DNA of 64,000 nt from Adineta vaga (Eukaryota > Animalia > Rotifera). Position 1 is the stretch's first letter; every line of letters starts with the position of its first letter. The notes under the pieces were generated by a model, which saw nothing but the letters and a program-made list of their open reading frames with translations, was not told the DNA's origin and searched no databases. A program made the position numbers and the translations under genes. The stretch lies in contig CP075493.1 of the NCBI GenBank assembly GCA_021613535.1, positions 6,572,001 through 6,636,000 of the forward strand, in the 5' to 3' direction. Below are positions 8,394 through 50,800 of the stretch, in pieces.

Positions 8394-10559
8394 ATGATCA
8401 TGCATCTATTCAACATATTCTTTCTACTTCTACCAGCATTGATTCAATCTCGTCAACATGAAATCTCTTTAAATGAAGAAACACCACTTGGAACTATCAT
8501 ATTTGATTTAAATACTCTCTCATCATCATCATCTATTACCTATCAATTACTAGAAAGTTCATCTTTACTTGCATTTAATTCTTCAACAAATCTTATTTCA
8601 ATAGCAAAACGTATCGATCGTGATACTCTATGTCCAAATGATGATACATGTTCAAAATGTCAATTAACAATTAAATTCTATGATATGTTTTATTATGACA
8701 TACTTTTACTTATATTTAATATCAATGATATTAATGATAATCCACCAATCTTTAGTTCAAATACTTATTCCATATCTTTAACAGAAAATAATATTCCAGG
8801 TATAAAAATTCGTTTATCTAAAGCTGAAGATATTGATTGTTCAATGAATGGTGTACAATTATATGAACTAACGTATGTTCTTCATGGTCATGTCATGATT
8901 TCATCAATAAATCTACTTTTAAAACATCAAAATCAAACAAAATATCAACCATTTTATTTATCCTATGATTCCAATACGGATCTATATCTGATTATCAATC
9001 AAACACTTGATCGAGAATTACAAAATGAATATATATTTACTATAACAGCAAATGATTATTCTCATACAATATCATCAAAATTAACGTTAACAGTTTTAGA
9101 TGTTAATGATCATATTGCACGATTTTCTCAATCAATCTATTCTGTTAATATGTCTTATTCAACAAGTCCGGGAACGATTCTCTTGAAATTAACTGCATAT
9201 GATCCTGATCTAGAACAAAATGCTCGAATTTTTTATTCGTTATTAAGTATTGATGGTACAACAAATAAGAATGATCTCTTTCAAATTAATTCTCATACAG
9301 GTGAATTACGTTTAATTTCGAATTTAACTCATCTGGAATCGAAACGTATTTTTAAATTAATTATTGGCGCATCGGATGGTTCTAATCATGCCATACCAGC
9401 ATTAACAACTGTATATATAAACATTATTCAACAATCGATTATAACAATAACATTCGGTTCAAATCGAATCTCTTCAAATGGTTCAGAAGTTTTTATTGAA
9501 GAAAATTTACCTAATTCAACATTTATTGCTTATATAACATCTGATAAAACTCTTCAAGTATTACCTGAAGGTAATTCTCAAGGTTTTTACATACAAAAAT
9601 TATCGGATAATTCAATTACATTATTAACTGATCGAAATTATGATCGAGAATTACATTCATTCTACAATGTTTCAATACGTAGTGGAGATAATGAACGAAA
9701 TTTTCGAATTATTGTGACGGATATTAATGATTGTCGACCGACATGGAATACTTCATTATTGAATATTAATGTTGAATCATATTTGATGATTTTGACATTG
9801 AATGCGACTGATAATGATGAAGGTCAAAATGGTAAAGTTGGATATCGTAAAAAAGGTTCTTTTTGGCCTGAATGGATTGATTTAATTGATAACCAATTAA
9901 TAATTAATTGTACAAATCAAACAGATAATCATTGTTGGAATCATTTATTAAATGAAGAAGTTTATATTGATGTTGAAGCTTTTGATTATGGTCAACCAGC
10001 ATTATCTTCACTAATGAAAATACGTTTATATCGAAGTTCAACTCGATTAATGTTTATGAAATATGAATATATGATTGTTAGTATTGCAAGTTTATTAGGT
10101 ATTCTATTTGTTTTATCGATGATATGTATTTGCATCTGTTGTCGACGAAGACAAACGAAAAAAAATATTGAAATCATGGATGATAATAGTACGAAACAAA
10201 AAATCATTCAGACATCATCGTCCGAACAAAGTTCATCGGCTGGTTCACTTTACGGATCAGAAAAATCGGATAATATTACACTCGAAACAGCAACGAGTTG
10301 TCATTTAGTAAGTGAAATCAATCATGACCGAAAAAAAAACTAATCAATTTCTTTTCTTTTCTATTAGGATATGTTTTTATTTTCTCCAAAACGTGCAGCA
10401 ACAATGACAGATTCACCATATCCATATACATTTCTGAATAAATCACTAAATCCAACAGATACTTTAACCAATAAATTATTTCATTCAATTCAAACTGATC
10501 TTTCATTATTAACTGATTCGAAACCAGATGTTTTGACTAATCGTGGTACTTATGTTTAA
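8394..10559 (+). CDS. Protocadherin-like type I membrane protein (~5 cadherin repeats); exons 8394-10307 and 10368-10559
   Basis: Signal peptide; cadherin motifs xEE/EN, DRD/DRE, DINDN/DVNDH/DINDC and AxDxD; TM helix followed by ICICICCRRR. Phase-0 intron gtaagt(10308)..ag(10367) joins the last exon in frame. Confidence 0.9.
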
Positions 10560-13413
10560 TTGTTATTTTTTTCTGTTCCTTTTTATTTATTTGATGTTGT
10601 AAGATCTGTGCTCTTTTCGATTTCTTAATGTAATAAGGCTTGATATGGTGATAATTTCAACAAGAACTGCCTCTGTATACTTATATAAATATTTATAAGA
10701 AAAGAAATTACATCAGTTAGTTTAAGAAAGGGTCAAGGCATCTGTTTGGCATTCAATATATTTTCGTTTCTCTACTTGTTCTTTTTGATTTCTTTCTCAA
10801 CTTGATGAAATTTGTGTGAAGTTGTCTGTCTATGTTCATTTGACTGTATATATGGCTTATCCCTGAAAATGACGGATGAGCATTGAACGACAGACATCAA
10901 TTCTGCTCTATCGATTATCTTGACATAGTCTGGCTAACAATAATAGATATAACTTGCGAAGAAGAAGAAGAAGAAAAAGAAGAAAGTGTTATTGCGTAAA
11001 GAAAATATATAGATTTTCTTTTGGTAAACCAACTGATTGCATAAGATATACACATGTATATCTGACATTCTTTGTCTTTCGTTGTCTTCTTAGGTCAAAG
11101 GAAATCATTTTCTATTCATGCTGAGTTTTCTTCTTAGAACGATAACCGATCGTTATTGTTGATGATAAATTTCATGAATCACAAACTATTTATTTTCCGC
11201 ATCATGCTTGAATGGCAAAGTGTATATATTTCATGTCATGGGAAGATATGCCCCATGCTGTTCCTAATTGTAGAATTTGAAAAATCTTTGACAACGATAT
11301 ATCAATGTTTCATCCTTTTCTTTTTTTTTGGTCATAGCGGCAACTTCGCACGCATCATTATCTCATCAGACTGACCATTCATTCACGTGCTTGGACACTT
11401 TCTTCCGATTAGATTCACCCTATAGCATTCTTTTCAATAGACATCAAGTGAATGCTGATCTTATTGGCATCTGTCCGCACTTTTTTCTATGTGTTGTTAT
11501 TTCGAGAAACTTCCAACTGAGATCTGATTAAATGAGCATACCAACAGCTGCACAATCAAATGTTGTTAATAGGAATCTACAATTTGATTATATATCTCAT
11601 GAAACGAAAGGATAATAAAATAGAGAACTAACATGCGTTTCGATATACACATGAGACCATAGAAATATTTCCTATGATGATCAATTAGACAGACAAGACG
11701 AAAGAATGTGCTTCCTTTTTAATGGACAGCAAGTATTGTATAGTTGGAGGGCAACAAATGTTGTCTTGAGATATGATCATTGAGAAAGAAAAAGAAAGTA
11801 AGATTAAATTGTCGTTAGTTAAACTTTCATGATCGCCTTCAGGCTAATCAAACTTCACCGGAACTATAATCTTCTTTCGACTCGAGTGATGTCTATAGGA
11901 TAGTATGAACTAGAAGAAGAAGGCGATAGTAATTAGTTATAATTAGCTGAAAATGTTATTTGTTGAATCAGTTGTTCGATTCGATGATGTACATCTGTTT
12001 CATAAAAGAATGTTCACTTGTTCAGTAATATCATTGTCATATTCAGGGTAATCCATAGGACAACAGTTGTTCAATATTCGTCAATCGACAAATGAAGATA
12101 TAAGTTCAAAGACAGCTGATGATGTAATAGAAAAATTCAATTATTTATACTTCACGGCGTCGATATTGGAGTATCGATGTCTTGAAGAGAATGACAAGTA
12201 ATTTGAATAATCAACAATGTATATATCTGTCGATTGATGATTAAAGAAACGACAACTTGTTTAATCCACTTTGAAATCTGAAAGCGACATAGAAGATGTG
12301 AGAGAAACGGAAAGCAAAGAAGAAAAAGAATCTCATCAAACATAATCTGATATGATTGCATGTTTATAATGAATTTTCTAACGAATTGAATCGTGTCTAT
12401 TATCAGTAAATCAATCTCGATAAACAAATGAGATCATTTGAATATTTTTTCGATCGTGAATTGACCGATTAGGAAAAAAAATGGTATGTAATAAAAATGT
12501 TGATTATCTGATCGAATCATTTATTATTCTCTCGATGTAACACTTCAATTGATGAAGTGAGTAACGGTCAAGCGAGTGTGAAAATTATCGTTGAATAATT
12601 GTTGATGAGATGAAGTTTGTTGAAGAGTTTAATCGATGGTACTCACAATGTGATCTCCTAGAGAGAGAATCGAACATAGTTATGATAAAAACAAATCTAC
12701 TTAAGTCTATCAAATATGGAAAGAATTGACCACATATTGTGATAAGATTTTCTTTGATCTGAATATTGAAATAAGTGGTAAATTTTTTAGAAAATATCAC
12801 CTTAGATTATCAAAGTAGATTCTACTGATTGCTTCGTCATAACATTGATAAATATGGATATGAAATGAAAGAATAATAAAATATATATGATGTTCAACAT
12901 ATTTTTCAAGTACGTAAATTATATAACAGTATCAACAAAATAATTGAAATGTAACATTATTTTGTCAGTATTCGACACGTCAATCATCGGTAAAAACGTT
13001 TGTTCACAATCAACTGTCAGTATTCGTTTGTGTTGCTATCATCACCTTCTGTTTGATCACATTTTCGAATTCATCAGTGAAGATTACGCAAAGAAAAACA
13101 GAATGCTCAATTAAATAGAAAAGATATCAATAACATATGTCTACTGTACTATAGTATAGGTATCAGAAGAGAATTCACATTTGTTTAATGAGTTTTCGTT
13201 CAAGTAGAATATTCTTGAGAGTCTGCATATATATAGAAAAGAAGGATGATTTCGATCATTGAATGTAATGCCGTCAGCTGGACAGAAGTCATCATTACTT
13301 TGGTCGATTCACTTTTGTAAAATTACACAGATGGTTCGCTCACGGTGCATTTTATATTAAGAAAATGTTCTGATTTATTTATGTTAAAAAAGATCTCACA
13401 CATTGAATATATT

Positions 13414-14391
13414 CTATATTTTATAAACAGTTCCTTGTATACCAATATTGATTCCTGCTTGTTGACAATGTTCTCGTTGTTTACTTTGTAAATCGTACAA
13501 AGGATTGGAATGATTTAAATGTATTAAAGTAATTTTATGTTCGAATCCTCGAAATTTTTCTAATGTTTGCATAACAGTTGGATGTGGAATTTCATCAATT
13601 TTTCGATTCGGTAGTTCATCAGCACTGAAAAATGTTGCATCAAGAAATGCTTGATCTACAGATTGAACAATATCGAGAGGTAATAAACCATTTTCATTTA
13701 ACCAACCACGATCCCAACTATCAACATCTGGACAAAAGAAAAATGTTCGTAATGATCCACGAATAAAATAACCAACGGCATCACTAAATTCTGCTCGATG
13801 TGGAATAAGTTGTGATTTAAGAAATAGATCTGATGATAGTTGAATTTCAGTTTGCGGTACTAGAGGATTGAGCACAAAATTTCCTATTTGAATATATGTC
13901 GACCATGGTTGATTAGTTTGAAAAAATTGACAGACACTTTCAGTTCCATAAATCTATGTAATGTATCAAGAGATTATCGTTGAGTATGAAAGTTTAGCAT
14001 ACTTTTAAACCTTTCCAATCCATTGTTTCACGTCCGAATTGAAAGAGACCAGTATAATGTCTACAAAAAAACATAGAAAGATCAATAATACCATCATGAT
14101 CTATTCATACCCCATATGTAAATGAGTTAAAAAGATTCCTTCTAATGTAAATGATTTATCTAATCCAAAATGCTTCTGTAACATTGTATATTGATTTCGA
14201 AAATCTGGCGAACAATCTATAAGCCATACTTGATTTGTTGTTTGATTAATAATGGCTAAACTAACAGTATATTGTTGAGGTAAAATTCCTTGATGAACTG
14301 AACTACAGTTTTTGCATTGACAACGAATTTGTGGCATACCACCATCTTGAGCAATACCTAATAGAAGTATTTCCGTAGTATTTGCTGTCAT
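13414..14391 (-). CDS. PqqB-like metallo-beta-lactamase-fold hydrolase (bacterial-type), 3 exons
   Basis: LLGIAQDGGMPQIRCQCKNC, LIDCSPD, spliced THLHMG|HYTGLFQFGRE, PHRAEFSD, PDVDSW, FLDATFFS, IPHP and LIHLNHSNP. Introns 14110-14061 and ~14002-13954 restore the frame. Confidence 0.85.
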
Positions 14392-14686
14392 TGATAACTC
14401 AGAAAAACGAATATATGTATGACCGATTTCTTGCTTCAAAATATGAATTATGACTAAGAACAGCGGTTATAAAATTTCAAATTCACTAGAGGTCGTTAGT
14501 TTTGAAGTGTTTACAATTGGTTAAATGTGTAACTTATCATCTCAACCTGGACTCTCAACAACACCATCATCATCAACAAAGATTTAAATAAGATAATGAG
14601 AACTTCAGATCTTCTTCTTTTCTTAAATTGATTCAATTACGTTTTCATCTCTGTAGATAATTCTGGATTATTTAGATTTTCTGGCA
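14392..14686. promoter_or_regulatory. Probable bidirectional promoter between the PqqB-like gene and Sec24
   Basis: Divergent start codons ~295 bp apart; the interval also appears to contain a Sec24 5'UTR splice acceptor. Confidence 0.5.
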
Positions 14687-17600
14687 ATGACAGCGATACG
14701 TCCACCAAGTAGTCCACAATTTCCTGATAGAATGACCAACCCAGTATGTTTTTGAGAAACGTTTTCATATATCTTTATAATTCTTGTCTGTAATTAGAGT
14801 TTCCTCAAACTACTCATCCAACACAAAATGGATTTCCTCCTCCAGCTTTTCCACCAAATTCTAGCTTACCACCTGTTCAGTTTCCTCCAAATACATATCA
14901 ACCAAATTCGTCAGTTTTTCCTTCGGTACCACAGTATCAACCAACTTTAATGAATCAACATACTTCAAGTCCAACTCCACCATTACCACCATCGAATTTC
15001 TATCCGACAACGGCAAATCCATCACCACTACCGCCAACAAATCTATATTCTACAATACCACCTAGTACATCATCACAACCAACTATTCGTCCAATGTATC
15101 CTTCACCGGCATCTGCCTATCGTCCTCAAACACAACCATCACAACTTCCTTCACAGATGCCAAACCAATATTCTCAGCAACCTTCCTCAGTCTATCCCTA
15201 TTCACAATACGGTAACAATTCGAATTCGATTGCTACTACTTCTCCTGCGATGACAACACAACCAGTTTATTCTGGTCAACAACCACAATCTATGCCTTAT
15301 GGTATGGGTGGTAATATCAATGGTGCATCGAATCAAGTAGTGAATAATATTAATGGTCCTTTTCCTGTAAGAATGAACGTTATTTAGTTAATTTCAAGTA
15401 ATTCATTTTTCTTTTAGAATAATAATAATAATAATTATCTGGTTGATTTGCTCAAAGAGAAAACAGTTCTTAGTCCATTCGCTGATGATCCACCAATATC
15501 ACCATTATTAAATGAAGACAGTCAACAAATGAATTGTAGTCCAGAGTATGTTATATTCAATTTCTTTTTATTTAATGAAGTCAAAAAAAACCGCATTATC
15601 TATGGTGTTGTTTTTAGAGTTATGCGATGTAGTCTTAATGTTATTCCTCAAACAAAAGATTTACTTAACAAAAGTCGTCTGCCACTTGGTGTTCTAATTC
15701 ATCCATTCAAAGATCTTGAAGTATAACGATTCATTCGATATCAATTTTAATTTATTTATCTTTGTTTTTTCTTCGTCATTTTCAAAGAGTCTAAGTGTCA
15801 TTCAAGGTACAAAAATAGTGCGATGCGATGGATGTAAAAGTTATATTAATCCATTTGTGACGTTTCTTGATAATACACGATGGCGTTGTAGTATCTGTTT
15901 TCGTATGAATGATTGTAAGATTTGATCTCTCAATTTCTTATTATCTGATATATTTTTTATTATTTTATAGTACCACAAGAATTTCTATTTGATCCAGTTA
16001 CAAAAACATTTGGTGATCCAAGTCGACGACCAGAAGTTCGTTTTGGTACTGTTGAATATACGGCTACATCTGATTATATGGTTCGATACATACACACATG
16101 ATTATCTTTATTTCTAATTTCAATTTTAGGCTCGACCACCTCAATCAGCAATGTATTTATTTCTACTTGATGTATCCCATAATGCTGTGCAGACAGGTAA
16201 CTATAATATAATTCTTTTGATATAAACTTAAGAAGAACTATCTAGGCTATCTTCAATCATTTTGTGATATCTTATTTGAAAATTTAAGTACTTTACCTGG
16301 TGATGCACGTACAAAAATAGGTTTTATAACGTATGATAGTCGAATTCATTTTTATGATCTATCTGATCGACAAAATGGTACATTTCGTATTATGGTAGTG
16401 CCAGATTTAGAAAATATTGAAAATAAATTAGATGAAGTTTTTCCTGTACCTGATGGTATAATGGTAAATTTAACTGAATGTCGAACAATAATTGAATCAT
16501 TTCTTAATGAATTGCCAAAAGTGTATCAGAATAATTATGAAACAGATTCTGCATTGGGTTCAACACTTTTAATAGCAGGAAAATTACTTCAACAAACAGG
16601 TGGTCGAATTACTGTTCTTCAAACACGCATTCCTAATGTTAATCCTGGTGCTTTGAATGGACAGACAAGCAAAGAACCAACGATTATTACGCCAACATCA
16701 GATTTTTACAAGAAACTTTCATTGGATTTTGCTTCACAACAAATTGCTTGTGATTTATTTCTTCTCAATAGTCATTACATTGATTTAACGACATTGAGTA
16801 TGTTCTATCTATTTTATTGAACTGATGAAGAAATTAAAAGATTTTTTATAGGTTGTATTTCGAAATATTCCGGTGGTGAAGTAAAATATTATCCAAATTT
16901 TCATTCGATACAAACGCCAGATCAAGTCGAACGTTTTGAAAATGATTTTAGACGTTATTTACAACGGAAAATTGGATTCGAAGCAGTTATGCGTTTACGA
17001 TCACCACCAGGTTAATATTTTTTCTAATTTTATAAAATATAAACTAAAGAGAATATATGATGCATTGTTAATCCTATAACTAATCTTTAAATTTATTAAT
17101 TTTTAGCTCTCTCAATTCAAACATTTCATGGTAATGGTTTTGTTCGTTCTGTTGATTTACTTGTTTTACCAAATATAAATCCTGATGCTGCATTTGGTAT
17201 GCAAGTTGCTATTGAAGATTCTTTAGCACAATATAAAGCAGTCACATTTCAAATTGCACTTCTCTATACGTCAAGCAAAGGTACTTGAATATTATTATAA
17301 AACATAGATTTATTTCTAGTTAATTAGGTGAAAGACGTATTCGAGTACATACACTTTCGTTACCAGTTAGTGCCACTTTGAAAGATATCTGTTCGAATGC
17401 TGATCAAGAAGCAATGGTTGCATTGATTGCTAAAATGGGTAAGTGAAAATTTAGTTTTTACTTGTAAATCATTTGCATTTGATTTAGCTGCTGATCGATC
17501 GACAACATCATCGATTCAAGAAGCACGTGAAGGATTATGTAATGTTGCGTGTGATGTTATCAAAGCAACAATGTCCAATGATTCATCGAATCGAGGAGTT

Positions 17601-18471
17601 TCACTCTATGTACCTCATGCAATACGTCTTCTACCATTATATATGCTTAGCATGATAAAATCAGTAGGAGAAAATGAAAATTGAAATCATTTTAATCATC
17701 CAGTTATCTTTTTTCATTTAGACGGCATTTCGAGCTGGAAGTTCAGTCAAAATAGATGAACGAGCTTATTATCTAGATTTATGTAAAACATTACCAACAC
17801 AATATTTAATACAAATGTTCTATCCAGATCTTTATCCAATTCATACCATTGAAGATAAGGTAATCTTCAAGAATATTTTTATTCTTTAAATCAATTGATA
17901 GATATTTGTACAGTCTTTTATTTATTTCTAATCCTACTTTTAGAGTCGGATCATTCAAGATGGTGAAGATCAATTGTATGTACCGGCACGTGTGCAGTTA
18001 TCTTTTCAACATATTGATGCACATGGTGTTTATATATTGGATACAAGCGAATGTATTTACATGTATGTTGGCAGAGCAATAAGTGATCATTTCGTCCAAA
18101 ATGTTTTCAATCAACCTACATTCTCAGTATTACCTTTCGATTCAGTAAATAAGATAAACAAAAACAAAAAAAGTGATTCTTGTATTTAATCTTTTTCTTT
18201 CTAGTACTCACTACCAGAACTTGACAATCCATTATCAATTAAAATTCATAATTTTTTGACTTATCTAATACAGAATCGATCCAATGGTGTAGCAGTACAT
18301 ATCATAAGGTTTGTTTCTTTAGAAGAACGAAAATTTGACTACGTTAGTTTTTCTAGAGAAGATTCACCGAATCGATATTTATTTACACGTTATATGGTGG
18401 ATGATAGGTCAGAATCAAGCATGTCTTATGTGGAATTTTTACGTTACATTCAAGAACAGATTAAAAAATGA
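14687..18471 (+). CDS. SEC24: COPII coat subunit Sec24 (Sec24A/B-like), multi-exon
   Basis: Pro/Gln-rich N-terminus; [14 protein letters not shown]; zinc finger [22 protein letters not shown]; trunk domain GGRITVLQT; [11 protein letters not shown]; GERRIRVHT; gelsolin repeat; C-terminal [15 protein letters not shown]. Confidence 0.95.
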
Positions 18472-21450: not shown

Positions 21451-22312
21451 TCAAATGTGACATGTATTTTGAAGGATAAACAAGTACTTACCTTTTGATT
21501 CTGCCGTCCTTGATGTTGGGGCACTGCGCGACTCTCCTGTTTCTGGCGTACTAAAAGTTGGCGAAGAATCAACGGACACAGACGATTTTTGTAGTATTGA
21601 GGCGAAAGGTGGTTCTAGGTATGGGTGTTCGGCAGCAGTTTCACGTAAATGAATGATATACAAATCTTTGGCAGGACTCCATTTACTTATGACACGGAAG
21701 TATGTACCAGGCATGAGAAGGATTTCATTTTCTTTCTTGTAAAATGAATGTTCTCGAATAGCTTTAATTAATACACTCTATATTAAATATTGTTCGCACT
21801 CCAGATGTACCAATGAATTGTTCCAACACATCTACACTTTCGGTGCACGAACTAAATCCCCACCATATATGATCGTCTTCATATTGATCACTTACATTTC
21901 CACGAACTCCTCGCCAAATTGTTCCTCTTAAAGATGGTAGTTTGTATAATGCTGTTAGAAAAAGTTTAAGATAGCGAAACCATGGTTTAAGTGGCTCTCG
22001 TCGTTCAGAACGAAGTGTCTGATTTAGTGTTGTATAAAGACTTCCATTTGATTTCTCCCATTGCATTGTGTAGAGATGAATAGAAGCTGATTCGTGTATA
22101 GAAAGGCCATCTTTCGGTTTTTTACAGTTACGTTTAGCGATATCTACCATTATATCGAGTTCCTCAAAGAACTCATGAATTGGTTGAACAGCTTCTTCCA
22201 AAGGTAGCAATTGTTCCTTAGCATATCCTTTGATAGGTAACAGAACCTGATCAGGTTCTTCTCCAGCATCAAGAAATCGAGAATTGACATTTGTACCTGC
22301 ATCTGCAGCCAT
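21451..22312 (-). pseudogene. NAD:arginine-type (R-S-E) ADP-ribosyltransferase with an apparent 2-nt deletion frameshift at ~21766
   Basis: SIHLYTMQW, LYTTLNQTLR, IWRG and WWGFSSCT, then IECIN-stop. KAIREHSFYKKENEILLMPGTYF continues in another frame, with no room for an intron. 3' exons beyond the donor at ~21491 are uncertain. Confidence 0.8.
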
Positions 22313-23129
22313 TATGTATGCTTTCTATTTGAAAATGACGACATTATAGTGTTGCTTTCATTTGTACGTTTACTTCGATCGTATCGTAGCAACATCGGTA
22401 CGAGAATTTTGAAGAATGAAAAAGTAAGACGAATACACGCGTGCAACAGAAACGAAAAAAAACAACAGTCATCATACACTGTAATAAACACGAGCCTTCA
22501 TGTAGGAGAATACTTGGAATAATAAAGGATATATATGTTTGATTTCGAAGATCATATTGTATTTCAGTCGAATCATCCGTTCATGAATTGATATTTAAAT
22601 CAATTGAAAAAATAATAAAACACATTTAGATAGCATATAGAATAATTATATGTGTGGCGATACAACTGGAAGTAGTTTCTATTATTTGTTTCATCAAATA
22701 AGTCAAAAAGATTCTCTGATTGGTGCGAAATCATTTTGTTATAATATATTCACATATTTGCTCTTACTTCACCAAGTTCCAAAAACTCTATTTGTCATAA
22801 ACTGTTATAAAGAAGTTTAACTTTCTCCATCAATAACGACGAAAGAATCTGATTCGAATAATGTGTATTAATAATAAAAAAACTGCAATAATGCTCTATA
22901 CATTTTTATGAAATCAGTATATACTACATGCCCCGAAAAATAAACGAGAAAGAACAGAAGAGATAAAATATATCTTACTTCAGCATATAACTGAAAATAT
23001 CAATATCATTGTTTTTCTTAATCAATGCTATATGGTGTGTTTATCTTGTGAAAATATACAGATGGTATGCAGATATAAAATACGTATAATTTATATAATC
23101 TACTTTTTTCATTTTCAAGTGCAAAAAAC

Positions 23130-24526
23130 ATGATTTCTACTCTAATAATCACTTGTCTCTTCTATTTACTAAACCCATTTATATTCAATGTAAACGGAGA
23201 TACATGTAATACTTACAATCATCCTCAATATGGTATTGGCCAATGTATGAACCAAACTTTATGTCCTAATGCTTTGTATCAAAATGGTTTATGTGAATCA
23301 AAACCATTGGATATAAAATGTTGTTTTTCATCAGCACCATTAAAAGAAGAATTTCGTGCTGCTTGGATTGCTACCGTCACTAATATTGATTGGCCATCAT
23401 CAAGAACTGCCACGCCAGCACAACAACAAACTGAATTAATCAATATTCTCAATACAATTCAAAATTTGAATATGAATGCTGTTGTCTTTCAAGTAATATA
23501 CGAAATAAACTCGATCATATTTTCTATTTCAATCATATTTCTTTTCGAAAGGTACGTCCTGTTGGAGACACCATGTATGCTTCCACATTGGAACCATGGA
23601 GTATGTATTTGACAGGTACTCATGGTAAAGCACCATCGCCATTATGGGATCCATTAACATTTATTGTGAATGAAGCACATAAACGTAATATTGAAGTACA
23701 TGCTTGGCTTAATCCATATCGTGGTCGAATGTCGGGCGCAACCTATGAGTTAGCATCGAATCATATGGCTAAACGATTTCCAAAATATGCCTATACATAT
23801 AATAAATACATATGGATGGATCCAGGTTCCGTTGAAGTTCAACAATTTATTGTTAATGTAACCGAAGATATTGTTCGTCGATATGCAGTTGATGGTATTC
23901 ATATGGATGATTATTTCTATCCATATGGTGATGGAACCGATTTTCCTGATGCTGCAACATACAGTGCATATCAACAATCAGGTGGTAAATTAAATAAAAA
24001 TGATTGGCGTCGTTTAAATGTAAATACATTAGTTCAAGTCATGTACGCAAGAATGCATGCCATTCGGCCAAAAGTTAAATTTGGTATTTCACCATTTGGT
24101 ATTTATAAAAATGGTGTGCCAACCGGTATAACTGGCCTTTCATCCTATGATAGTTTATATTGTGATACTAAAATGTGGTTAGAACAAGGATATGTTGATT
24201 ATATGACACCACAACTCTACTGGCAAATTGATCCGCCAGCACAATCTTATCCTGTTCTTTTGAATTGGTGGATACAACAGTCAACTAAAGGTCGTCATGT
24301 CTATCCTGGTAATGCAGTTTATCGAATCCTTCCAACTGGTCTCAATTGGCCCGTTAACGAAATTGTTCGTCAAGTTAATATTACTCGTTCAATGCGTGAT
24401 CGTTTGGCACTTGGAAATGTTTTTTATTCGGTAAAACAAATTATGCAAAATGTGAAAGGCATTCAAAACGAACTTGCAACACTTTATAAACAAAAGGCTA
24501 TCATACCAAAGATGAGCTGGCTTTAA
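23130..24526 (+). CDS. Secreted glycosyl hydrolase-like 10 (GHL10/DUF187, YddW/DigH-like) with N-terminal 6-Cys module; exons 23130-23492 and 23552-24526
   Basis: Signal peptide; EFRAAWIATVTNIDWPS; spliced FQ|VRPVGD; HAWLNPYR; DGIHMDDYFYPY; FGISPFGI; DYMTPQLYW. A 59-nt phase-0 intron. Confidence 0.9.
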
Positions 24527-37185: not shown

Positions 37186-38682
<1,497 letters not shown>

Positions 38683-38981: not shown

Positions 38982-39995
38982 TTAGAAATGATTTACAGAG
39001 GGAATGGCAGATCTGTTTCTTCTTCTTCTTGTAACATGTGGTTGTTGATGAGCTTGACTTGCAATATATCTCCTCGACATGACAACTGGTTGAGTAAATT
39101 TCTGTTGAAAATAATTGAGTTGTAATGGAAATATGTTCGAAAGATATGGTGTTGATGACGATTGATAATCTCTGACTCCTAAATATATTTTATTCCATAA
39201 CAATTTGTCGAAATTTCATCAAATTAACTTACCAAATGGTTGCTTTAGTTGCATACCATAATTCCACATCGGATTGTTTTGAAATGAACCAGTCGGGACC
39301 AAACAAACATTTTCATAAACATTACTATATCGAATAGGTATTTGTCTATTGCGAGTTTCTTGTTGAACATTCGAAGATACACGTCTTAGCATTGTATCAA
39401 CATCAACATTCGGTGTCGTTATATGTCGAAGTAAATGATGAGTAAATATACTATTTCGTCCTTTGATGATCAAACTCGTAATTGGTGCTCCTTCTGCACC
39501 AGAATAAGCGATGATTGTCGATGGAGGTGGACGGACAGGTGCAAGACCTTGGAGCAAGCCCAACGTTTGTCGATCGAAAAAGGGCATTTGGCGTCCTAAT
39601 TCTCGATGAGGTCGACAACAATCAAGAATAACGATGATTGCTCTAGGAGCTTTACTTCTCATAGTATCTATAAAGTTTTCAACATTGATAGCATCTTCTT
39701 TTATATTTCCTGAATTGATTTGTGCATTATCTGTTGGAATTAAATAATTGAAATCATTATACTGTACACCAAGACCAGAAAAATAGAATATTACTAAAGA
39801 ATTTGGTTCAATAGATTGTGCAAATCTATTGGTACGTTTTCCCATTTGATAACTATCCAAATCTGTTGCACAATGTGTAAGAAATCCAATTGAACGTAAT
39901 GCCAAACACATATCATTTGCATCGTTAACACATGGTTTTCGTGGTATTGCTTCATAATTACTATTACCAATGACTAATGCTTGTCTTTGGAACAT
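38982..39995 (-). CDS. Peptidase C14 caspase-like protein (paracaspase/bacterial-type, no prodomain) with catalytic His replaced by Leu; exons 39995-39233 and 39178-38982
   Basis: ALVIGNSNY, PCVNDA, IFYFSGLG (expected SGHG), NYLIPTD, VILDCCR, IIAYS, NSIFTHHLL and QIP; Arg-rich tail exon. Confidence 0.85.
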
Positions 39996-41305
39996 AATTG
40001 TAGTCGACTAGATTGAATATATGCCGTGCAGATTTCTATTGATTGTCGATAATTAAACAATATTTTTATCTAATTAAATGAAGCTTCTGTGTATGATAAA
40101 GTTATTTAATATATTCTTGTTTTCTACTAAATCCGACATTCGTAAGATTATCGAAAAAAATGTTTTAAAATAGAATTTTTTTCATTCGAATACACGTATG
40201 AGTTAAGAGAAATTTCCAACCTAAAATTTCGGTTACTCACTTTAACTATTGTTTATTTTTATGATAAAATGTGATATTTGTTGTTGATTGCTTACATTCT
40301 ATCGCGATGAATGAATAATCGCTTGGTGTATAAGAATATTATTTCTTTTCCCCAACATAATAGCGTGTCTCTTATGTTATGAAAAAAATGGTTCAGGTCC
40401 AATAATTCTTACTGATAAATAGTGTCCTATAACCACCATATATCAAATAGATATGCTTGCATTTTTCTTTCAAAATAACAGGCAATATATACTCATTAGA
40501 GAATATTCTGGGTTTAATTGGGCTTCTGTAAAATAAAATCAACAGGTGTAATGTTTCAGATAAATTTTTCAGTAGAAAAATGTTGTATCAATCAAGATGC
40601 TTATCACTTAACAGTAAAAATTATATTAAAACCATGAGTATATCTCTAAGATGCAAAAAGAAGTCGTCTACTATATCTATAGAAGTTCTCGTTGAAGAAT
40701 TTTGCTTCTTAGGTCATCATAATGAAGCATAGAATGCAAAAAGGAAAATAAGAAGAACACTTTGCTTAGTAACTATATAACTAATAATGTGACAGAACTG
40801 AAAAATCAAACATAAAACAAAATCGACCATGCGACAAAGAAAAATAAATAAACATTTCGTGCACTGAGTATGGGAATAGTTTCATTAGTTGCTACTATCT
40901 GATCAATGATCCAGTGCATCCTTCACCTTTTTTTCTCTCGAATAAACAGAAAAATAGAAAAATAACTGAAATATTTCAGCTGATGTAGAAAGTAAGAAGT
41001 GAGTACGATGGAAAAAGCTTTTTTCGTTTGTGCATTACTAGGATGTCTTATTCATCATATTACAACTTCCTTTTTATTACATAATCATCGATGAGAAATT
41101 TAATTGCTTTTGTCACTCAAGAATCCTCACGTAATTATTATGACTAATTTTGATGAAATGACGCGTTTTGTTCTATACAAACACAACCTATTATGTAGAG
41201 AAAATTTGTTTTAATTCTTTTTTTTCTGTAAATTTATTGATATCTAGAGCGTTTTTTTTTCAAATAGATGTTTTCACTTTTAGATTAGTATCGTACATTA
41301 TCAAC

Positions 41306-42277
41306 ATGTACAAGAAACAAGCACTGCTTATTGGTAATGTTAAATATGCAGAAGGAGATCTAGTACCTTGTGCAAAAGATGCTAAAGATACAGCTGCATC
41401 TCTACAATCGATTGGTTTTCAAGTGCGAGTTGGATTGGATCTTGGTAACGATCAGATGAAATCGACGATTCAGCAATTTGCACGGTCTGTTCGACCAGGT
41501 GCTGTAGTTATCTTTTACTATTCTGGTCATGGTGCTCAGTTTGATGGGAAAAATATTTTGTTACCCATAGATTTTTCCGATCTCAATTGTACTAATGCTC
41601 AAAATGTAATTCAACAGCTACATCAAAATCGACCACGAGCTGTTATCGTCATTCTAGATTGTTGTCGTACCCGTTTGAACATATTGGATGAAGCGAAAAG
41701 AGCTTTGTTCTTCGATCGACGTCCAAGACTAAGAGATGGTCTTACACCTATGGGAGGTCCACCATCAACGATCATTGCTTATGGATGTGCAGCTGGAGAA
41801 TCATCCATAGCGAGATCTAATCTCCGAAATAGTGTTTATACACATCATTTACGTCCTCGTATTACTACACCCGATGTTGATCTTGAAACTATATTGAAAT
41901 ATGTTGCTATAGATGTTCAACGAGACTCAGATAACGAACAATTACCTTTTATCTTTAGTAATTGCAATGAACCTATCTATCTTAATAGTAATTCGTGGTC
42001 AAATAGTCCGGCTTGGCCACGAGCTGTACATTTCAATCCAGTAGTGAGTGAGTGATTGATTATGAAAATAGTCTGTTTACATTTAATATTGCAAATATTT
42101 TTAGTGATGTCTGATAATCGTCTACGTCGTAAACATCATGCTACTTTCAATCTTCGACCAGAAATGACTGATTTCTCACATGGTTTTCGTGATTATTCTC
42201 GTATACCAACTAATAGATATCCATTGCGAAACCATTTATGGTCAGGTGCGATGGAATCACCACATAGACACTGGTAA
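41306..42277 (+). CDS. Peptidase C14 caspase-like protein with intact His-Cys dyad; exons 41306-42047 and 42105-42277
   Basis: ALLIGNVKY, PCAKDA, IFYYSGHG, ILLPID, VILDCCR, PPSTIIAY, NSVYTHHL and EQLP; clear paralog of the upstream divergent gene. Confidence 0.88.
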
Positions 42278-42597
42278 CTAGGAATTTATAAGAAGGCAAC
42301 AAAAGAAATTTTTTATCAAACCAGATTTCATTTCTTTTTTTGTAAACTAAACCAGTTTTGAGAATCATGTCATTGTTATCATAAACGGCTCTGAATCTTT
42401 GATTCTTCATAAAATGTTTGCATGCAATTGCCACCACGTGCTTTGATACAATCGTATGAATCATTGGCGGAATTACATCTAAGTTGTGTAATTTTGATCC
42501 CGTTAATAAAAGATACAATCTAAAGTTTTTTGTCATCTACTAGCTCACAGTAAACTAGTAACGATAAAAATAATAATAATAATAGCAGTTTACAAAA

Positions 42598-43326
42598 ATG
42601 AAAATATCAAATGAAAATTCAGCTGATGCTAATCGTAAACAAAACAAACCATTCTTAGTTTTCATAGCTGGACTTCATTCAGCTGGTAACTATTTACTCC
42701 TTATTTTTTATTCTACTCACCCTCAAGTTTCATTCTATTCAGGCAAAACAAGTGTACTCTACTACGCAAAACCTAAAGAACAAATATCTGGATTATTCAC
42801 CATGGGCCTATAATTGGAAATCATTTCAATTGGTAACAACTCTATAAATTTGCTAGATGAAGGTGGACGTTCATCAAGTCGTGCTTTTTTTCGAGCTTAC
42901 TATCGAAGCCTTTCAGGACTTATCTTTGTAGTTGATTCAAATGATCAAAGTAATATTGACGCTGCATGTGAAGAACTTCATCAAATAGGTATTGAAGCCG
43001 AACTACAAAATAAACCTTTCCTTATTCTTGCTAATAAACAAGATTTATCTACTGCAATGCCAGTAGATGAATTAGAAATGAAACTCAATCTAGCGAAATT
43101 CAATGGAACTAGAAAGTGGCATTTACAACCAACGTGTGCTGTTCGTAGTGAAGGTGTTCAAGAAGTCTTAACATGGCTACTAAACGCAATAATGGAAAAA
43201 CAAGCTTTGATAAAACCAGCAATAGAGACAGTAAAAGACACAAAATCAATACAAACTTTTCTCAACTCTCTTCTAAATATGAATGATGTAAAAACATTTT
43301 TTAACAGACGTTTTAGTTTCACATAG
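42598..43326 (+). pseudogene. ARF/ARL-family small GTPase with in-frame TAA at 42811-42813
   Basis: G1 GLHSAG|KT (intron 42686-42742); switch I reads TMGL*LE; G3 DEGGR; IFVVDSND; G4 NKQD; G5 TCA. Confidence 0.8.
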
Positions 43327-43777
43327 GCATCTATTTATATTCGTACATTTTATTTCGGATTATCGATTATGATTGAGGTCATAAAAAGGTCTTCTATTGC
43401 GTTTAGATTTTCATCTGCACTGTTTTTTTTCTATTGATAAGAAATGACCATCTTAGTTGTATTTGCCGAAGAATAAGAAAATAAACTCATAGTCTGTTTC
43501 AAAATAAGCAACGCTTTTGACATTCTTTTCTTCCTTTCTCAACCGAAAAGAAACATGAAAAACAGAGTTTTTTTTTCTTCCTATTAAATACGACTAAAGA
43601 AGTTTCTTTCAGTTCACATGTGTCTGTAATATAATAGCTTAAAAAAAACCCTATTTCTGCGAATTCTTTTTTCCCTTATAATTTTTCCAACAATTCCGCC
43701 GCCGAATAAAGGTATAATTCTTTGCATTTAAACTAAGCTTCACATAAAAGAATTTTTATCGATTGAATCAGCGTAGT

Positions 43778-46700
43778 ATGTCAAATTGTTCTTCATGTAA
43801 CCAACCATTGTGTGATGACGATGACGAGGAAGTAACTACAAAGTCGGGTGTTAGATTTCATCGCACATGTTTGGAACAATTACTCAAACCAAAATCGAAA
43901 ACTACTCCTAAGGTAACGAAAGAAAATACATATATGAGATTAAGATCATTTCTGAAAAGTAAACTGGAAATTTTCCAATCAAAATTCTCTTTTTGAGCGT
44001 AGCAATATAGATAAATATATTCGTTCAGTTACTCTTTGTACTGAAATAATCAATATCGGTAAATATAAGGTCGTAGATGATGGAATGCACGAAACGTCAT
44101 CGTCACAAGGAACACCCTGTCGATATGGTGGTGAATGTCCACAGATCAATGATAAAAGTCATTGTCGTGATTATGCACATCCAGACTATTGTCAAGATGG
44201 TGGTCATTGTATGAATCAAACAGAAGATCATTTGAAAAAATATCGTCATTTACCGCTTTGTCCACGAGCGAGTAAATGTATCGATTATCTAAAAGAAGTC
44301 AAAGAACATTGTAATAGATATCGTCATTTTGCTCCACGTTGTCCATATGGGAATAATTGTGCGTTGTTTCATGATAAAACTCATTTCGAAGATTTTCAAC
44401 ATCCATTTCCGACTCCTTGTCCACGTACTCCATTCGATTGTCCACTCTATAGTGCTTTATGTGAATCAAAGAATAATCAAACTTTACCAAAATCAACTCA
44501 TCAACATTGTTTGAGTTTTGCTCATGTATGTAAATTCGGTCGAAACTGTACCGATACAACACAATTACATCGATCCAAATCGATTCATATTGCTCGTCAA
44601 GTATGTCCATATCGTGAAAGGTGTTATAAAGTATCCGATGAAGATCATATAAATTCATTTACACATCCGAATATTCCCGATATTCGACCATTATGTCCCT
44701 ATCGTGATAATTGTCGTGAACCTGAAAAACTTGAACATAAAGTTAATTTTCGTCATCCTATTACTCATGAAGCTGGTGTCGTACATTATTATGGTTCTAA
44801 TAAAAGAACAAATTTTGTTAAAAATCATAAGAATAATGTAGCTTGTGTCAATCGTTTTATTACTAAACATCAATGGAAACCCTTACCAACAGGAACTATA
44901 CCTGATGAAATCATTAATTGGATACGTACAGTTCAACCTATTCATCGATGCAGTGCAGTTATATTTGAATCGATACTTCTCCATGGATATGTGATGAGTC
45001 GTCTTTATATGGAACGTTTAAACGATCCAACATTTGTAGCTGATTCTGTCTTACATCATAGTCGTATACGACGTATAGAAGCTATGAAAATGAAAACATG
45101 TGAAGATGATGCAAGACAATATGTTACTGCATTAGTTTGTCGCGAATTTGAAAGAACTGGATTTCTATCAAAATCAACCAATCCTGCTCCATATGCGACA
45201 ACTTCCTTTGAAGAAACAATGAGAAAGAAAGAGAATAAGTTATCCGGAATAGTTTCAGTAAATGATATCAATGCACTACGTACAAAAGCTATTGAAATAG
45301 CACGAGCATCTATTAAACTTCATTCCGATCCAGCTGGTATCGGATATGCACCTGATAAAGCATTGGGTACGGATAAACTTGTTTTTAGTATACTTGGACC
45401 ACATTTAGGTCATTATTATGATGATATTATTATTATATTTAAACGAGATATTTTAAATCATCCTGATTCGAATTTTTCTATGCAAGCAGCTACTTCTTTT
45501 ATTAGTGGCAAAGCTTATAACCAGCGACCCTGGTTAGATGACGATCGTGGTTCTACACATGAACGAGCAAATCATTATCACACAACTAAATTGCATGCTT
45601 CAGTACCAGGTTATGAATATGCTGCGGCACTGGAATTGATGGCAATGACTAGTTTACATTTCAATTTGAAAACAATGGATATTAATCTTAAACAAATATT
45701 TGATCGATGGACAACAGTTGATTCTCATCAAAATATCGAAGCTCATTTACCTCAGTTGATTCCTCTCGATTATATAGATCATATTTATATACCAAGAAAT
45801 ATTTTTGATAATCTTAGTGATGATGCTAAAAGAGCTATCGAAGCTGTTTTTAATAATCGTATTACTATTACAGATCATATAGTTGAAAAGATATTGGATA
45901 AAAGATCCTTTGGTCCATCACCTAATTCACCAATACGAGCGGATTATCAGAATACAGTGATCAAAACATTACTGGCACGATATAAAAGATATACTTCTAT
46001 TCTAGCATTAAATTATCTCAAAGGCACAATAATAACAGTACCATCGACAAACCTCGACGATCATTATGTTTTACCTCTAACAATTTCTCAAGCATATGAA
46101 CAATATAGTTTTGAACGATCGAATCCATCTAGAAATAATATAACATATATCTATTGGAAAGCTCTACATGGAGATATGATGTTAACATTATCAAGTGAAA
46201 AAATTGATCCAATGGAGAAACAAACCCATCTTCGTTGTTTAATTTGTTATGTTGCTACAAAATCTGCATCAATTGATGATCATTACCATGAACCAACGTC
46301 CTATCTAGCAGCTGGACATCCATTTCAACATGCAATGATTACTAGTGAAAAGAAATATGCAGTGAAATCTAATACATTATATGTCGGTTGTAATAGTGCA
46401 GATTTTTTCACTTACTGCTTAGAAATTCATTGCTCAACTGGTCAAGTCATTCTAACACATGCTGGACCTAATGCTATTTACAGTCGAGGACAAATGTTTT
46501 GTAGTTTCAATCGATCACAACTCGATTTGACAAAATTGGAATTTGTTCATATTAGTGCTGGTACTCATAAAGTACCTGTACGAGAATTAATCATATGTTT
46601 CGAGAAACAATCTCATTTACATCCGACATTTGATAAAGATTTTACAGCGAATACACCATCAAAAAGTAAGTAATAATAATTGTCATCTTTGAGAATAATT

Positions 46701-46963
46701 GATCTATGGATTCTTGTTTTAATAGCAACAAAACCATACATCAATCCATCTACGCTTAAAATAACGGTGATAATGATAAACGAACACTATGTAAATGGGG
46801 AGTCGATTGCTACGATCATTCGAAAGATCATCGATCGGAATATTTTCATCCTTCAACTTCAAACTCGAAAAAACAAGAAGATGAATATCGAAGACAATGT
46901 AGATGGGGAGCGAATTGCTATGATCATTCCAAAGATCATCGATCAGAATTTTCACATCCATAA
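43778..46963 (+). CDS. Multi-PBZ (CCHH) zinc-finger protein with central putative ADP-ribosyltransferase (DarT-like) domain; exons 43778-43912, 44070-46665 and 46726-~46963 (last exon needs one more A near 46760)
   Basis: Exon 1 CxxC..HxxC splices in frame. Eight C-x5/6-C-x(6-9; one longer)-H-x5-H repeats. Central motifs PIHRC..FESILLHGYVMS, DKLVFSIL and HQNIEAHLPQLIPLDYIDHIYI. Two more CKWGVDC/CRWGANC..H..HP fingers at the 3' end. Confidence 0.75.
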
Positions 46964-47895: not shown

Positions 47896-50800
47896 TTAAC
47901 GAGGAGTAACAGAAGGTGGAGGTGGCGTTGATTGAAGTCCCATCGGATTTGTATTCATACCCGTTGATGGATCATTTGTCACAGACGATAGTGATGACGC
48001 AAGTGGAGTTCGAATACGTTGTTGAATCGGTAGAGTTCCATAAGCAGCATTTGGTGGTCGAATACCACGTGCTGTTGCCATATTATAATCCGGTGTTGGT
48101 GTCATTGAACGTTGAGGAGGAGGATAGTAAGAAGCGTTTGTTGGTGGCATATTTGAATAAAAAGGAGTTTGTGGACGTGAACGAGATTGAATAAGAGAAT
48201 GAAACATTTGTTGTTGTTGTTGTTGTGGCTGTTGAAGTTGCTGTTGAAGTTGCTGTTGTTGTTGTTGTTGTTGAAGTTGCTGCTGCTGTTGTTGTTGTTG
48301 TTGTTGTTGTTGAAGTTGCTGCTGCTGCTGCTGTTGTTGTTGTTGTTGTTTTAATGGATCATCTAAGAGATCATCAGGTTTTATCTCGATTGAATCGAGA
48401 AGAATTGGTTTACAACTAGCACCGTTTGACGATGTTGGTGTAGATGGCATTGAGTATGTAGGTGTTGGACCTTGTGAAAGAGATCGATGTGTTGGTTGTG
48501 GTGGTACTTGAGATTGCTGTTGATACGGCATCGTTGAAGGATGACTATAATACGAGTTAAGTGGATAGCGAGTTGGTACTTGCTGTTGCTGTGGTGTTTG
48601 TTGAGGTAGCATAGGTTTACCAGCACGTGCTGCTGCTAATGCATTAGGATCCATTTGTTGAGAATGAGGATAACCTGGCGGAGCTGAAAATGCATTCATT
48701 CTTTTGTTTTGCAAAATCACATATTATTTTAATTAAATTATTTACCTATATTTGATGGATACGGATAAGAACTTGATGGCACTTGTGGAGTTTGTTGTCG
48801 CATCATATACGGATCTGCACCATATGGCATTCTTTGTTGAGTATAAGCCATTGGTTTACCACCGCTGGCCATATGTGATCCATATCGATGTTGTTGTTGC
48901 TGCTGAGACATCCATGGTTGTGATGATTGTTGAGGATGAGACATCATCATTGGATATCCGCCACCTGCTGGATTACCTTTACCACCATTATAATAAACTG
49001 CATGTTGTGAAGATGATTGTTGAGAAGGTAGACTTGCGCGTACTAATCCACTCATAGATGTAGGTTTACCACCTTTGCCACCTGATGGCATCATTTTACC
49101 AGATGAACTTGGTGAAGCAGATTCCATTGGATGATGATACTGTGCTGGTGTAGATTCAGTAGTTTGTGAACTAAGTGGAGATGGTCCTAAATAATAGAAG
49201 AATTAACATGATATTTTTTCTATCAATTATAGTTGATAATAATCAATCAATGTAAATACTGTTTACAACATTATAGATGTTATTCTTCGAAATCAGATTA
49301 CTCTAAGATATTCTGATTATCAGTAAGTTGATAACAATCTCTGTTCAAATCATAACCTACCTGGTGCCATTTTTGCTCGATGCATTGCTTTGATACGTCG
49401 TCGATCTGCTTGCATAGTTGCTGCACGTTGCCGTTGAAGTTTATTTTTAAAGCTTGCACAATAAGGTAACTAAATCAAAAGAAGTATTGCACATGATATC
49501 GAACAAAAAAGAAAAACAATGAAACATACGGGACAATTTTGATCATTACATGTTTTTGCATGATACCAAATCGGTGATATAAGTTTATTACACAATGGAC
49601 ATTGATTTCTTGAAGGTTTAGTGCATTCTTTCGCATGTTGAAGTAATCTTTGGCATGGTGCACAATTTTTAAATATACAATTTGCATTTCGACATTGTGC
49701 TGCATGACGTATGACATCTAATTGTCGTTGCATCATGACTTGTCGTTGTTGTTGGCTAGTTAATGGTGTATCCGAATTGGCTGGTGTTTCACTTGTATCA
49801 TCTGAACGTTCCATACGATGTTCATGTTTAACTGTTGTATAACATTTACTGCAAAGATCATAATCATCACAGACAGTACAATGATATCGAATATCACATA
49901 ATTGTCGACATGAATTACAAGTATATGAGACTTTATCTGCTGTTGATGAATGTAATTCAATTAATGAAGCCATGGTAGAATATTTGGCACGACGTAACGA
50001 CGAAAATTCACAATGTTTATCACGAGCAAAACTTAGAAAAGCATCACGAGATTCCATTAAGTCACATTGTATTAATGGATCTGTATCGGTTAATGTTGCT
50101 GGATTCGACATTGGATTACGTAGACGAACAACAAAGAATGACTAAATAGATGAATTTGATGTATTTCAAATCATGCTAAAAAGAAAGTTTTCTCCTACTT
50201 CTTTATGTTTTTCCATCATTGCATAGATTTTTGTAATTAGATCTGAACCATTGGACATATTTTTTCGTGCTACTCGACGTTGACCAGTTGTTTTCTTGAA
50301 ATTTTTCTTCTTATGTGTTGTTCCACCACCTGATTTACGCTTATCAGATATCTATAGATTGAAATAGATAAATCAAAATGATAATTTTCTCTCATTAATT
50401 CGTAATTTTACTTCAGTTGGTTCTTCAGGTTCAATAGGATCATCGAAACAACCATCATCCGATGCTTTGACAGCTTCAAGTTCTTCAAATTTTCTTCTAT
50501 CTTCTTCTTCAGTATCAAGTTCTTTCAATAAATCTTCAATTGTACTTGACCAAAAATCACCTTCAAAATATGGAAGATCCGATGCTTTTGTTATGCCACT
50601 ATCAGTACAATCCTTCATTACATCCTAAACATAACATAACGAAAATGTCAGTCGAAAAAGAAAACAATGAGTCGAATAAGAAACAAACTTTATAATCGAC
50701 GACAACTCGTTGATTAACAGCAATATCTAACATTGTTTTATACCATTCTTGCAGGCGTTTTGGTTTAGGTACACGTTGTTCAAATGGATGACAATGAAAT

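Follow-up and report, generated by a model that had tools for sequence, protein, structure and literature searches.

A likely long-resident gene for a predicted ADP-ribosyltransferase, and three likely later arrivals, between GALE and CBP in Adineta vaga

Between the genes for GALE and CBP/p300 in the bdelloid rotifer Adineta vaga lies a block of four intron-poor genes, which we analysed within a 64,000-nucleotide stretch of contig CP075493.1 (hereafter the window, whose positions are used throughout). The block holds two caspase-like genes of peptidase family C14, an Arf-like gene and a large gene that combines zinc fingers with a predicted ADP-ribosyltransferase (ART) core. The initial annotation had offered two views of it, a linked immune module of protease, GTPase and ADP-ribosylation enzyme, or a rapidly turning-over island. 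Our work here leads us, with moderate confidence, to read the block as one old resident gene for a predicted NAD+-using ART with ADP-ribose-binding fingers, joined by three genes that are likely later arrivals and likely share no pathway with it. The features are:

37186-38682, plus strand: GALE, the left flank; eight GT-AG introns, joined in RNA-like contigs
38982-39995, minus strand: caspase-like gene 1 (C14, 320 amino acids); one intron, exons 39995-39233 and 39178-38982; PF00656, E 7e-32
41306-42277, plus strand: caspase-like gene 2 (C14, 304 amino acids, I4U23_002104); intron 42048-42104; E 3e-33
42598-43326, plus strand: Arf-like gene, likely a pseudogene; intron 42686-42742; PF00025, E 2e-31
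43778-46963, plus strand: large zinc-finger/ART gene (I4U23_002105); three exons, two introns
43778-43912, plus strand: exon 1 of the ART gene, a degenerate RING-like stub that matches the N-terminus of PARG-bearing relatives (P0159)
44118-44756, plus strand: array of eight CCHH (PBZ-like) zinc fingers in tandem, weakly matched by Pfam and matched by profile to the APLF PBZ domain
44778-45878, plus strand: predicted ART core, 367 amino acids; predicted fold and conserved residues
46020-46640, plus strand: ConA/galectin-like beta-sandwich resembling Methyltransf_FA (PF12248); predicted structure, Atlas PF12248 0.96
46760-46963, plus strand: part of exon 3, which starts at 46726; two canonical PBZ fingers, then the stop codon
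47899-54186, minus strand: CBP/p300, the right flank, seen in part; also the right neighbour of the orthologous ART gene at locus L003

The four genes carry one, one, one and two introns, against eight in GALE, and caspase 2, the Arf-like gene and the ART gene all lie on the plus strand, as the initial annotation had described. The large frame is identical to A. vaga I4U23_002105 and caspase 2 to I4U23_002104; the Arf-like gene was passed over in annotation, the locus tags going from 002104 straight to 002105. Three read runs were taken as RNA-like since their contigs skip GT-AG introns (no run is recorded as RNA), and contig depth was not used for ranking genes. Contigs of all three cover the ART gene and both caspases, whose introns are skipped. 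The GC content of the block (0.28-0.35) is similar to that of the rest of the window, and no repeats framing it were found in the window; repeat D1 corresponds to the two PBZ fingers of the ART gene. A mobile-element origin, with neither terminal repeats nor a GC shift to show for it, was ruled out, and the PADLOC matches, a generic caspase and a weak restriction-enzyme row, were dismissed.

The ART gene is transcribed, as the RNA-like contigs show, and encodes in order a RING-like stub, eight CCHH repeats, the core, the beta-sandwich and two PBZ fingers. The latter, in the last exon, score 54.8 bits against a Pfam cut-off of 22.7, which bears out the earlier assignment of PBZ domains to this gene. 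An extra base at 46763, absent from the window assembly, stands in four of four runs at full depth; because the assembly is short of this base and the PBZ frame is offset, the deposited C-terminus of I4U23_002105 (the last ~75 residues) is likely in the wrong frame, without the two fingers. An AlphaFold2 model of 862 amino acids of the gene product has a predicted local distance difference test score (pLDDT) of 90, and both model and structure search give an all-beta ConA/galectin-like sandwich behind the core. The window ART gene contains neither a PARG domain nor a macrodomain.

The fold of the core (367 residues, pLDDT 93) carries the functional assignment. In a full structural alignment against 48,161 chains, with rows less than 1 Z apart counted as ties, the top nine were all of ART fold (Z 7.9-12.1): SopF (Z 12.1, root-mean-square deviation 4.0, 212 residues aligned), CopC (11.7), OspC3 (11.4 and 11.3), DarT/DarTG (10.7, 10.7 and 9.8), DarT1 (10.0) and Tpt1 (7.9), the first unrelated chain following at 7.4. 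The Atlas places the core near OspC and DUF3626 clusters (0.88-0.90), and a DUF3626 row of BFVD matches it at E 0.027. Profiles give another picture: Pfam returned only weak RING and PBZ matches on the large gene, Pfam and NCBIfam had no hit on the core, a search to E 1 over the cores of 51 members found neither PF12294 (SopF/DUF3626) nor any other Pfam family, and a sequence search of the PDB with the large gene found the APLF PBZ domain as its sole match. The earlier naming of an ART therefore stands by predicted fold and finds no echo in profiles. The model points to an ART of SopF/OspC/DarT type.

The predicted catalytic set comprises His56 (44943), Phe203 (45384), Glu321 (45738) and His323 (45744), the first three on predicted strands. 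Among 155 aligned cores these are kept in 148, 144, 150 and 145, respectively, and the complete H-F-E-x-H set is present in 139 of 154 full-core proteins (not de-duplicated). In the available part of PMC9239266, the catalytic residues of CopC are H137-F183-E325 plus H327; the E-x-H pair of the OspC ADP-riboxanases is present here as Glu321 and His323. The initial annotation had thought of cholera-type ARTs, an idea that fails on the first-strand residue, which is His, on the set, which is H-F-E and not R-S-E, and on PF01129, which is not found on the window protein and forms a separate extra domain in five of 98 relatives.

Comparison with known systems sharpens this picture. Salmonella SopF (PDB 7dn9), an ARF-activated ADP-ribosyltransferase, is the rank 1 fold match of the core in three structure searches at an identity of 10-12%, but it is a secreted bacterial effector, whereas the window gene belongs to an animal, contains introns and adds zinc-finger arrays and a beta-sandwich to the core. 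Since SopF needs GTP-ARF1, according to the accessible text of PMC12560355, the suggested relevance of ARF-activated ARTs survives as an echo in the best structural match, although not in the cholera-type form proposed. The arginine ADP-riboxanases OspC3 and CopC (PF06128) share the fold (Z 11.3-11.7) and, in the portion of PMC9239266 at hand, the H-F-E triad with a His two residues past the Glu; there, OspC recruits caspases by its ankyrin domain. In contrast, the window protein has no C-terminal ankyrin domain and no PF06128 hit, and a beta-sandwich follows its core. The DNA ADP-ribosylation toxin-antitoxin systems DarTG/DarT1 share the fold (Z 9.8-10.7) and pair, or at times fuse, the writer with a hydrolase; our family differs in being eukaryotic, in its hydrolase, a microbial PARG (PF10021, TIGR02452), and in a large helical insert and many zinc fingers. 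No cognate hydrolase is linked to the window gene, and its relatives bear PARG, not DarG. With APLF-type PBZ proteins the window gene shares its two canonical PBZ fingers.

These relatives form a multi-copy eukaryotic family that Pfam misses and for which we found no published description. A word search gave 98 relatives, every one with an organism name being a bdelloid, and a profile of the core and flanking domains gave 759 cluster representatives at E <=0.001 (150 of them listed); ten distant representatives that were looked up included two from Diphylleia rotans and one from Euglena gracilis. Two short patterns, which remote kin could escape, gave 20 hits in GTDB genomes and nine in viral contigs, none of them confirmed. 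Neither the family nor PBZ or PARG domains joined to such a core were found described in the open literature (subscription papers being outside its scope), and the supplements of PMC10665377 held no matching ids.

A PARG-like domain lies upstream of the core in 54 of the 154 full-core proteins, many of the others being short or partial, and the GG..QEE motif of microbial PARG (DUF2263) is present in 49; PF10021 was found in 22 of 24 hand-picked long members and 14 of 39 further ones, and PARG stands upstream of the family gene at 29 of 44 metagenome loci. Microbial PARGs are described as exo-acting ADP-ribose hydrolases in the part of PMC7050489 available. Long members thus combine microbial PARG, zinc-finger arrays, ART core and lectin-like sandwich in one chain, and A. 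vaga itself has a PARG-bearing paralogue, I4U23_011018. Other add-on domains are classical ART, ADP-ribosylglycohydrolase, WWE, RING, GBP, Roc-COR and VWA. By its fused domains, the family clusters around ADP-ribose metabolism. Distant members (P0242, P0252, P0216 and P0230) are fused to LRR-Roc-COR, guanylate-binding-protein, WWE or VWA domains, and such fusions hint at an immune-type use outside rotifers. Five members (P0032, P0175, P0178, P0179 and P0182) show a degenerate ART motif beside an intact PARG motif, the inverse of the window copy. Family genes stand as tandem pairs at L017, L018, L020 (about 2000-11800) and L030; at the first three the second copy is preceded by PARG and the first has no PARG match within the stretch examined.

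The history of the interval was read from the same metagenome scan, which covered 557 kb in 44 family loci, 28 of them of >=10 kb, and reduces to 19 non-redundant groups. At L003, in a bdelloid-like genome, the gene order is that of the window: neurobeachin and GALE come first, then one open frame of 1910 codons that spans PARG, PBZ and ART, then CBP and a kinase, with no space for further genes between GALE and CBP. GALE is the left neighbour of the orthologous ART gene at L002-L004, where the caspases and Arf are absent from the interval. In a midpoint-rooted tree built on 357 columns from 79 cores, from which P0007 and P0174 were excluded because they have no full core, the L003 core together with that of L001 is sister to the Adineta clade (FastTree support 0.986). 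Because an orthologue fills the same interval in the L003 genome, the ART gene is likely an old resident of it and not part of an island, and the two caspases and Arf are likely later arrivals from expanded families. The idea of a turning-over interval accordingly fits the caspases and Arf, which are absent from L002-L004 and belong to many-copy families, but not the ART gene; and GALE, for which the initial annotation had asked whether it elsewhere sits directly beside CBP, is separated from it at L003 by the PARG-PBZ-ART orthologue alone. The Adineta copies of the ART gene lack PARG. Because they keep the RING-like N-terminus nonetheless, their sequences suggest that PARG was lost by internal deletion, a loss also seen in the sister paralogue (P0003, P0004) of A. 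steineri and A. ricciae.

Among the putative newcomers, the Arf-like gene is likely a pseudogene. Codon 53 is an in-frame TAA (42811-42813), against Glu in the A. ricciae orthologue; the gene has no Gly2, and its switch-II Gln is Arg. The Gly2 myristoylation site and the switch-II Gln are canonical in functional Arf proteins (P0317 being our reference); the window gene has neither of them, nor an open frame. The sole DNA-run contig over it is one base short at 42885 and would there put the frame out of register; an RNA-like contig of depth 2.1 has that base. Bdelloids have 13 further tailed Arf variants (P0304-P0316) with a C-terminal helical tail, and in this divergent subfamily 11 of 13 carry Arg at the switch-II Gln, a replacement that could favour the GTP state. 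One of them, P0314, has an otherwise canonical N-terminus.

Caspase-like gene 1 is transcribed and retains its Cys, but its catalytic His, kept in all 18 other aligned C14 proteins, is Leu; the name pseudo-caspase, given it from the start, is apt. Two contigs from different runs cover the gene and have their differences elsewhere, so that the Leu does not stem from an assembly error. Gene 2 has an intact dyad (His-Gly and Asp-Cys) and is spliced in three RNA-like runs, joining to its own stop exon. An older annotation, in the part of PMC12220480 available, flags FUN_003124 as a horizontal gene transfer (HGT) with bacterial best hits, and by gene order this is likely gene 1. The accessible text of PMC11258130 counts 101 C14 proteins in A. 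vaga, a bdelloid expansion of which few respond to a fungal pathogen; both genes fit its bacterial-/fungal-like divergent kind, from which gene 1 departs in having no catalytic His.

Against a linked immune module stand the 44 family loci, none of which has C14 or Arf by profiles that detect both in the window, and the broken state of Arf here; among 255 family proteins, Arf occurs in two and C14 in none. The caspase-ARF-ART linkage that was to be looked for at other loci recurs only in the congener A. ricciae, where caspase 2 and the ART gene lie together on three of four ART-cluster contigs (45,371, 283,762 and 420,637 bp, their accession numbers lying close together; the sharing of contigs is inferred) and Arf was seen on two. 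The genes are therefore not unlinked in every other copy and species, but two congeners would be expected to share gene order even where the genes share no function. Neighbours of C14 and ART kinds are expected by chance because both groups are large, with 101 C14 proteins and, in the portion of PMC11258130 at hand, 431 genes in one ART gene ontology class. A spaceflight expression table (PMC12220480, seen as an excerpt) has the gene order of the window, with one merged Arf-caspase-PBZ model down by 0.38 log2 (false discovery rate 8e-7) and a separate HGT-flagged caspase unchanged. Its FUN-number models were placed on the window by gene order only, I4U23 numbers not mapping to FUN numbers, and the merged model joins three window genes and so gives no separate expression values. 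The cassette is likely ordinary gene accretion, and the block likely not one defence module.

We hypothesize that the core, through its predicted SopF/OspC/DarT fold, binds NAD+ via His56, Phe203, Glu321 and His323 and would mono-ADP-ribosylate a protein target, while the PBZ fingers would dock the enzyme on ADP-ribosylated material. In the long relatives, the microbial PARG seen in the same chain would remove the marks made by the core, so that each of these proteins may write, read and erase the signal on its own, as a switch in stress or defence pathways. The Adineta copy, its eraser lost by internal deletion, would then be a writer only, erasing being left to paralogues such as I4U23_011018.

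Several observations weigh against this account of a resident, working ART with unrelated neighbours, some directly and others through the alternatives considered below. Foldseek on the PDB ranked SopF, OspC3, CopC and DarT first, with no match at E <=0.001. The core residues are equated with the CopC set from motif order and strand position. A single outgroup locus group, L002-L005, gives the direction of insertion, and the A. ricciae Arf orthologue reads intact across the part seen. Finally, the window copy has Asp in place of Gly215, which 147 of 155 aligned cores retain; one RNA-like contig agrees with the Asp, and the copy may be weakened through this change.

A first alternative, which we regard as unlikely, is that the core modifies DNA as DarT does, the fused PARG playing the role of DarG in genome defence or a damage response of these desiccation-tolerant animals. 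By the structural alignment DNA could be the target, DarT/DarTG ranking 5-8 (Z 9.8-10.7) and lying ~1.5 Z from the top; ART-hydrolase fusions of toxin-antitoxin type are known (PDB 7omu; PMC8883491, consulted in part), PBZ domains accompany bdelloid DNA-repair proteins (available part of PMC6264785), and PARP genes rise after irradiation (accessible part of PMC10809525). Yet the protein-targeting SopF, CopC and OspC3 align over 196-220 residues against 165-176, the E-x-H motif is of OspC type, and the eraser is a PARG and not the DarG macrodomain.

It is distinctly improbable that the window copy is a weakened or non-catalytic reader of ADP-ribose in an interval where decaying genes collect. 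Its PARG is gone, its RING reduced, Gly215 replaced and its C-terminal fingers fewer than in A. ricciae, and its neighbours are a His-less caspase and a broken Arf; the core, however, is 74-75% identical to that of A. ricciae and retains all four predicted catalytic residues, and among the 40 of 173 read differences listed, ten of 16 in the ART gene are silent and none falls at these residues.

We see only a slim chance that the genes form a young functional Adineta cassette, in which the neighbouring Arf activates the PARG-less ART, a caspase is its target and the A. vaga Arf is decaying. In its favour, the closest structural kin have partners of the very kinds that adjoin the ART gene, ARF for SopF and caspases for OspC3 and CopC; the caspase 2-Arf-ART order, preserved in A. 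ricciae since the split, and the Arg of the Arf subfamily would suit it as well. It sits poorly with the empty 44 loci, with an Arf broken in A. vaga while ART is still transcribed, with a core that has no OspC-style ankyrin caspase-binding domain, with large families that make chance adjacency cheap, and with a PARG loss shared by the sister paralogue, for which no caspase orthologue surfaced. Still slimmer is the prospect that Adineta copied bacterial effector logic outright, a PARG-less SopF/OspC-fold ART, a GTP-locked Arf activator and a caspase substrate making an irreversible ADP-ribose switch on cell death.

Least probable of all is a real fusion transcript of ARF and ART, or of caspase, ARF and ART: two of five A. 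ricciae models are Arf-ART fusions (P0002, P0145) and Arf, caspase and PBZ domains are combined in a single model of the older A. vaga annotation (FUN_003123, placed by gene order), but the two fused models are near-identical in the core (branch 0.00) and differ in their junctions, which points to predictor choice, the other three begin at the RING stub, RNA-like cover is 0-1.4 at 43144-43527 between Arf and the ART gene, and, among the joints listed, the splice from caspase 2 leads to a stop exon of its own.

The window and its counterparts offered further observations. A second, unrelated ART-like gene (21454-22324, minus strand) is 50% identical (tblastn) to the classical ART region behind the family gene at L009-L011 and L016; Pfam found no match on its two frames at E 0.001. 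A metallo-beta-lactamase-fold gene (13417-14466, minus strand; PF12706, E 5e-5), with an N-terminus that we take to recall bacterial PqqB-like proteins, is a possible horizontal gain. A Glycosyl hydrolase-like 10 gene (23079-24523, plus strand; PF02638, E 7e-61) has a cysteine-rich N-terminal part. In CBP, a long CAG/CAA glutamine repeat spans 48190-48360; close to it, at 48155, three runs have an insertion of 3 bases. The L003 stretch has open frames of 1043 codons for neurobeachin (1248-4376) and 1597 for CBP (13151-17941) where the window has many short exons, and its genome is far poorer in introns than that of A. vaga.

Known representatives of the SopF/OspC/DarT branch are bacterial effectors and members of toxin-antitoxin pairs. 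If our account of the resident gene is right, its family would amount to a new ADP-ribose signalling system that unites writer, PBZ reader and PARG eraser in a single chain; the animal that has it is noted for gene capture and for its tolerance of desiccation and radiation. Even should the effector-logic reading fail, the family would be the first eukaryotic lineage of SopF/OspC/DarT fold fused to its own eraser.

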